Notes under the pieces: model-generated
The model's input: only the letters and a program-made list of their open reading frames with translations
Told to the model about the DNA's origin: nothing
Databases searched by the model: none
Shown here: piece after piece, positions 8,094 through 8,220 of the stretch
Layout of the letters: every line of letters starts with the position of its first letter
Position numbering within the stretch: the first letter of the stretch is position 1
Made by a program: the position numbers and the translations under genes
From: Pseudomonas phage vB_PaePAO1-KEN19
Direction: 5' to 3' (one strand)
Length of the DNA stretch: 64,000 nt
Sequence record: PP456878.1

Positions 8094-8220
8094 AGTGAAA
8101 ATGCCCACGAGGGGTAAGTAGCTAATCCGCAGTTCTCTTGGACGACACCTGCTGACAGTGTAGTCGCGAATGCACTGTTTGGAACCCCATTGGTTTAGCG
8201 GCCAATGGGGATTTCCTTTT
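8094..8220 (+). ncRNA. candidate small non-coding RNA (~125 nt) between extended -10 promoter and intrinsic terminator
   Basis: promoter 8079-8087; terminator stem CCCCATTGG/CCAATGGGG (8185-8210) + ATTTCCTTTT; no ORF of length on + strand; lies antisense to upstream region of - gene 8219..8656. Confidence 0.3.

Follow-up and report, generated by a model that had tools for sequence, protein, structure and literature searches.

The segment between positions 8022 and 8225 of the genome of Pseudomonas phage vB_PaePAO1-KEN19 (PP456878.1; the window analysed here is a stretch of 64,000 nt) is probably an overlapping termination zone between convergent transcription units, and not a small RNA gene. 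The original prediction had placed a candidate phage sRNA with its own promoter and terminator at 8094-8220, and for this the published data on the related phage phiKZ contain no start site and no listing as a non-coding RNA (ncRNA), nor does the site resemble the early or middle promoters of phiKZ. The most likely course of events is that plus-strand RNAs enter the zone from the left, starting at the equivalents of the phiKZ start sites P005 (7747) and P004 (7841), and that some of them would stop at a first hairpin, T004 (8059), and the rest at a stronger one, T003 (8215). Minus-strand RNAs of the early operon would read through the T003 hairpin, which lacks a U-tract on this strand, and would stop at the T004 hairpin in its minus orientation, where the hairpin plus TATATGTCGT would end them at about 8023. 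The region 8094-8184 would then be, on the plus strand, the tail that read-through adds between T004 and T003, and, on the minus strand, the 3' UTR of the early operon. The staggered ends on both strands thus make it a shared 3' tail of both transcript sets, and from the terminator orientations it follows that the main terminator of each strand would lie at the far end of the zone. Likely roles of such an arrangement would be the insulation of late and middle plus-strand units from the early minus-strand operon, and 3'-end protection; the spacer itself would serve nothing but termination or insulation and the stability of 3' ends.

The source phage is a Pseudomonas aeruginosa Phikzvirus, a phiKZ-like jumbo phage. 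Over window positions 7600-8700 it is 100% identical to kmuB, PhiPizzaParty, sp. 30-1, Pa_AttikonH10 and Koomba boorn-mokiny kep-wari Wadjak 1, and 99.9% identical to KTN4, which at the candidate locus itself matches at 100%, as do kmuB and PhiPizzaParty. In phiKZ (NC_004629) the minus strand is the counterpart of the window plus strand, and identity is 91.3% over 7600-8700 and 95.6% over 8020-8223. To the left of the zone lies the large terminase gene (5491..7644, plus strand; PHIKZ025), and the zone is bordered on the right by a gene for a 145-aa PHIKZ023-like protein (8219..8656, minus strand; phrog_24036), whose stop codon (8219-8221) adjoins the T003 hairpin and whose 3' UTR crosses 8094-8220 in antisense. 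Because this gene is on the minus strand, its 3' end abuts the element, and not its 5' region as had been proposed. What had been taken for a short GC-rich islet at 7700-8220 only opens a longer stretch in which GC stays at 43-51% as far as about 11000.

Transcript ends in phiKZ have been mapped by ONT-cappable-seq of infected PAO1, on a pool of 10 samples taken 5-80 min into infection (Putzeys et al. 2024, Microlife uqae002). We took the start and termination tables from the supplement of bioRxiv 10.1101/2023.10.13.562163 and moved the positions to the window by pairwise alignment; the ends are phiKZ data, applied to a KTN4-type phage through orthology, and we infer that the same transcript ends occur here. 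On the phiKZ minus strand, T003 lies at 12011 and T004 at 12168, corresponding to window positions 8215 and 8059 on the plus strand (Putzeys et al. 2024). The start sites P004, at 12388(-), and P005, at 12482(-), correspond to 7841 and 7747, also on the plus strand, and P005 is a middle promoter that was seen by Wicke et al. too. The minus-strand units of phiKZ run from 12388 to 12168 (220 nt), from 12388 to 12011 (377 nt) and from 12482 to 12011 (471 nt). On the opposite strand TU004 (PHIKZ022-023) runs from 10695 to 12204(+), which is window position 8023 on the minus strand, and 12204 is described as the 'most distant 3' end' of TU004 and is not a formally called termination site. With these phiKZ ends, transcripts from the two sides share about 190 nt (8023-8215). 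Discrete transcript ends near 8094 and 8220 would be expected of a separate RNA, and the tables supply the 3' end, at 8215, and no 5' end near 8094; among the 149 entries of the start-site table there is none between 10695(+) and 12388(-), and an independent RNA needs one near 12131(-).

The mapping of T003 and T004 in phiKZ means that both the proposed terminator and the hairpin noticed upstream of it are real and experimentally mapped in that phage. The downstream GC stem and T tract form a genuine intrinsic terminator: a core hairpin CCCCATTGG/CCAATGGGG at 8185-8210 is followed by ATTTCCTTTT, the T tract reaching 8220. In the minimum-free-energy fold the hairpin reaches GGAA...UUCC (8181-8216), with a phiKZ-type tail, TTTTATGCCG, directly 3' of it, and the main plus-strand terminator can be written as GGAACCCCATTGG...CCAATGGGGATTTCC then TTTTATGCCG (8181..8225). 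In the minus orientation the stem is followed by TTCCAAACAG, which is not U-rich. The stem has changed from a U-A to a C-G pair in the SL2 clade and is kept in PA02 and Churi through two further compensatory pairs; judged by such substitutions, the terminator is the sole part of the element with clear selection.

The upstream hairpin, described as a perfect 9-bp stem at 8031-8054 (GCCCTCCTG/CAGGAGGGC), is present and is the core of an 11-bp hairpin at 8029-8056 (TAGCCCTCCTG/CAGGAGGGCTA). We assign it as a terminator in both directions. On the plus strand it is the ortholog of T004, a leaky site, and on the minus strand TATATGTCGT lies directly after the hairpin (8056-8029) and fits the phiKZ terminator tail TTATKYYGT. 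In the same orientation AGCCCTCCTG..CAGGAGGGCT then ATATGTCG form a hairpin with a TTATKYYGT-like tail, as expected of a phiKZ-type terminator, and a scan for hairpins followed by [TA]TAT[GT]YYG returned the minus-strand 8056-8029 site and seven others in the window. The stem is invariant and the loop variable in 15/15 phages compared, and the hairpin is present in all 54 Phikzvirus and Pawinskivirus records with the locus. An apparent second place of the locus in most genomes, reported by BLAST, was rejected, being merely the palindromic hairpin matching itself.

Both hairpins, and their order, are as in phiKZ T003 and T004, to which they are orthologous (3' ends at window 8215 and 8059), and ARNold called neither of the two intrinsic in the published table. 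The phiKZ-type intrinsic terminator motif is 5'-BCCYCCCCHWWDGGGRRGGBYTTATKYYGT-3' (Putzeys et al. 2024). The hairpins resemble it in that a GC-rich hairpin is followed by TTAT or TATAT plus KYYG (GGAGGGCTATATGTCGT on the minus strand, and TTCCTTTTATGCCG on the plus strand after the extended T003 hairpin), but they have longer loops, and the T003 stem contains an internal bulge and its hairpin is off the CCYCCCC consensus. Six overlapping bidirectional terminator regions have been described between convergent phiKZ genes, with opposite sites 23-183 nt apart (Putzeys et al. 2024). The zone shares with these its convergent units, its two hairpins and its opposite 3' ends (8215 on the plus strand and about 8023 on the minus strand), but differs in a spacing of ~192 nt, just beyond the 23-183 nt range, and in that its minus-strand end is a read end and not a called site. 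The phiKZ map of Putzeys et al. thus already contains both terminators and the transcription units, and the architecture resembles a kind that has been described; the locus illustrates well how convergent transcripts can overlap at staggered 3' ends, with the far hairpin stopping each of them.

Between the two terminators is a non-coding spacer (8094..8184) that is transcribed on both strands in phiKZ and folds moderately well. The claim that some 125 nt here hold no credible ORF is borne out, as there is no conserved protein-coding frame and the longest plus-strand ATG ORF in 8094-8220 has 6 codons. The minus-strand ORFs 7965..8108 and 8122..8376 either lack conservation or lie out of frame over a real gene. 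The first of these, of 47 aa, is annotated in PhiPizzaParty and HPP-Temi, and was rejected as a conserved gene because a 1-nt insertion frameshifts it in phiKZ and four other compared phages. A search of 8094-8220 with Rfam covariance models (Infernal) gave no family match even at E <= 10, and in the window as a whole tRNAs alone pass the gathering threshold; ARAGORN found seven known tRNAs elsewhere in the window and none at the element.

Natural shortened versions of the element occur in two lineages. Coverage of 8020-8225 is 80% or more in 45 of the 54 records with the locus, at 90.8-100% identity. In the same set of phages the 3' half of the terminase gene is 99% identical, the 88-aa gene to the left of the zone 89-90% and the element 91-96%, and by this comparison the element is not unusually conserved. 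In T2P everything 3' of about 8171 is missing, T003 included, and U1B, U5 and phi9_PA9 give the same shortened BLAST match. PA02 and Churi carry an 83-nt version without two of the helices, and three more records show the same short match. Outside these phages, exact and degenerate patterns searched in IMG/VR gave 0 matches or 16 chance matches, with no homolog; GTDB genomes gave 0 matches to the element, and JGI metagenomes 2 chance matches with no homolog. All known copies of the element come from some 50 sequenced genomes of P. aeruginosa phages in Phikzvirus and Pawinskivirus.

We consider it unlikely that a plus-strand RNA of ~120-155 nt (8059/8094-8215) accumulates as a discrete stable phage RNA, which could come from a weak unrecognised start site or from processed read-through. 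If it did, it would work as a trans-acting sRNA or as a cis-antisense partner to the 3' UTR of the early operon, and the repertoire of Phikzvirus and Pawinskivirus would gain a conserved intergenic ncRNA. In the processing version, which we likewise regard as doubtful, read-through RNA from P005 and P004 would be cleaved just after T004 to leave a T003-protected 3'-derived species of ~150 nt (8059-8215) whose action could be in cis, on the antisense 3' UTR, or in trans. Units that read through to T003 are known in phiKZ, and 3'UTR-derived ncRNAs are documented there (3'UTR_PHIKZ298) and in PAK_P3. The locus resembles such UTR-derived RNAs (phiKZ 3'UTR_PHIKZ298 and 5'UTR_p40; PAK_P3 ncRNA1 and ncRNA2) in being structured, terminator-ended and 3' of start sites. 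Those RNAs have northern or Grad-seq support as discrete species, however, whereas this locus is absent from the published lists: both of the phiKZ Grad-seq ncRNA candidates are elsewhere, the ncRNA candidates in Table S7 of Putzeys et al. start at 19894, and neither method reports the locus as a processed or 3'-derived candidate. The only phiKZ sRNA predicted by Wicke et al. is of 75 nt and was unconfirmed by northern blot.

The fold itself bears on the same question. Over the candidate it reaches -45.3 kcal/mol on the plus strand (z = -2.6 vs shuffles) and -38.2 kcal/mol on the minus strand (z = -2.2), and several of its G-U pairs are specific to the plus strand, which favours a 3'-derived RNA. 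Covariation, assessed on 8 distinct full-length variants, is weak. Just one pair is changed on both sides, the U-A to C-G replacement in the terminator stem; in the body helices four variable paired columns keep pairing via G-U and three break, the four G-U-compatible substitutions are one-sided and strand-specific, and the covariation score is equalled by 12/500 shuffles. Fold and covariation are compatible with some structure on the plus strand, and far from proof of one. The natural deletions in T2P-type and PA02-type phages also argue against a 3'-derived RNA and show the element to be dispensable, and a termination zone is the reading that we prefer. Against that preference count the plus-strand fold, better than both shuffles and the minus strand, the one-sided G-U changes, and the persistence of the element beside differing right-hand genes.

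An independent sRNA gene, as first proposed, would start at about 8094 from the extended -10 motif TGTTATAAT (8079-8087), using host sigma-70 RNA polymerase or an unrecognised class of phage promoter, and would end at T003 to give an RNA of ~122 nt; we regard this as very improbable. The motif is certainly present. Together with a -35-like TTTTCA (8060-8065), a 16-nt spacer and TATAAT (8082-8087) it forms a plus-strand sigma-70-like site (8060..8087) with 10/12 matches plus the TG, the best on that strand within 6500-10500. Its TTTTCA is the U-tract behind the T004 hairpin, and the PA02/Churi lineage has a -10 of TATGAT that no TG precedes. Such sites do not exceed chance frequency: the window contains 3 copies of TGNTATAAT, where shuffles give 8.7 +/- 2.8, and first-order Markov simulations give 48 +/- 7 sites with at least 10/12 matches (47 observed) and 3.2 +/- 1.9 such sites with TG (2 observed). 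Transcription in phiKZ is described as completely independent of host RNA polymerase, a virion polymerase acting on AT-rich early promoters and a non-virion polymerase on middle and late ones. In phiKZ-like genomes, then, a sigma-70 promoter of textbook appearance is no evidence of a gene, because these phages use their own polymerases and their AT-rich DNA contains such motifs at chance frequency.

The phage promoter classes fit the candidate no better. A weight matrix built from nine published phiKZ early promoters finds ten window sites scoring 17.6-32.1, with the core TATAT at 19996, 17641, 19492, 55746, 34835, 44336, 17991, 62096, 47308 and 58431; all are on the minus strand, as expected since this is the early-gene strand. 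The candidate scores -11.4 (rank 2507). The ten early (virion polymerase) matches are separated from background scores by a clear gap. Phage phiKZ early promoters combine an AT-rich upstream element with a TATATTAC core about 7 nt from the start site, and the candidate core TATAATAC equals this at 7/8 positions, a point in favour of an independent gene, but its upstream part contains GC (ACGTACGGTGTTGT) and the AT-rich upstream half is missing. A second matrix, for which eleven middle promoters were aligned by their (T/A)ACT box, recovers the P005 ortholog at 7725 and sites upstream of three tRNA genes, and gives the candidate -3.8 (rank 2772), so that by both matrices it scores far under true promoters. 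We therefore judge that TGTTATAAT matches by chance, in a genome that is rich in AT and is transcribed by polymerases with no use for sigma-70 promoters: the motif stands, and its role as a promoter falls on its chance frequency, its low matrix scores and the lack of a phiKZ start site.

Two related possibilities were rejected. A minus-strand early promoter at about 8090 serving the 88-aa gene fails on matrix scoring, with or without a 1-nt gap, and a promoter type common to the candidate and the phage tRNA genes fails as three of the latter have middle-type AATACT...TATG sites. The seven tRNA genes (Leu, Pro, Met, Asp, two Asn and Thr; Rfam and ARAGORN) lie at 29051-34995 on the plus strand, and the middle-promoter-like sites are upstream of tRNA-Asp (30547), the second tRNA-Asn (32714) and tRNA-Thr (34887).

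Other evidence for an independent sRNA is that its terminator is real, that it has no ORF, that its fold modestly beats shuffles and that 32/149 phiKZ start sites lack a recognised motif. The phiKZ start-site table and ncRNA list are without this locus, although ONT-cappable-seq may overlook short RNAs and start sites of low activity; at about 122 nt, a primary RNA would exceed the alignment limit of roughly 80 nt mentioned by the authors. The lack of any Rfam match, and the loss of the TG in PA02/Churi together with a body shortened in two lineages, also argue against it. With an sRNA gene under a promoter of its own thus unsupported, the stretch is ordinary.

Since both strands are transcribed, dsRNA formation or transcriptional interference is possible, and a regulatory overlap would have been selected for this, with ~190 nt of sense-antisense sequence through which middle-phase transcription from P005 down-regulates the early operon. 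In its favour are the transcription of 8023-8215 on both strands in phiKZ, the class of P005 as a middle promoter and the extension of P004 and P005 reads up to phiKZ positions 8970 and 7381, antisense to PHIKZ016-023, but the proposal is purely inferential, the overlap may simply follow from the terminator positions, and T2P-type phages without T003 remain viable isolates, and we hold it to be highly doubtful. Some phiKZ P004/P005 reads run 3-5 kb antisense into the early operon.

The gene beside the candidate was confirmed as a conserved 88-aa ORF at 7699..7965 on the minus strand (phrog_23084), downstream of the minus-strand terminator, and it is intact in 15/15 phages compared, phiKZ included. 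It is missing from the phiKZ RefSeq annotation (about 12270-12536), which has PHIKZ024.1 and PHIKZ024.2 on the opposite strand instead. The plus-strand frame equivalent to PHIKZ024.2 is shortened in 11 phages and leaves no ATG ORF of at least 20 aa in 3, and in the PHIKZ024.1-like frame the C-termini are frameshifted, radical substitutions occur and a Shine-Dalgarno sequence is lacking. From these reading frames PHIKZ024.1 and PHIKZ024.2 are probably misannotated, on a non-coding antisense RNA. The P005 and P004 orthologs (7747 and 7841, plus strand) are inside the 88-aa gene and antisense to it, and the 220-471-nt phiKZ transcripts are therefore probably non-coding antisense RNAs. The absence of the 88-aa gene from the RefSeq record and the probably doubtful status of PHIKZ024.1 and PHIKZ024.2 are by-products of the analysis for annotation. 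We identified no promoter for the 88-aa gene, and the phiKZ table lists no start site for it. In its putative 5' UTR there is a small minus-strand hairpin, GTCAAGTTTAAGCTTGAC plus TTTTTGCCC (8005-8022), just after the TATATG behind the minus-strand terminator.

Among other features of the left flank, phiKZ T005 (12586-) corresponds to the stop codon of the window terminase gene, directly before an A-rich run, AAACAAAAAAAAATAATAA. This site may be an artefact of poly(A) trimming in the method, and a hairpin at 7667-7691 is a more plausible terminator than the T005 position; it scores as a minus-strand terminator for the 88-aa gene too. From about 7645 onward, Pawinskivirus phages such as PA1C share the block at 97% identity, and in HPP-Temi the gene upstream of it is annotated as a virion structural protein and not as terminase. 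Together with the differences right of the element that are described next, this looks like a recombination boundary.

On the other side, the gene right of the element varies among phages, with annotated coding sequences of 438, 420, 336, 285, 216 or 204 nt, and the element, which is retained although this gene differs, therefore forms the left edge of a variable early-gene region. T2P carries a deletion of about 160 nt here.
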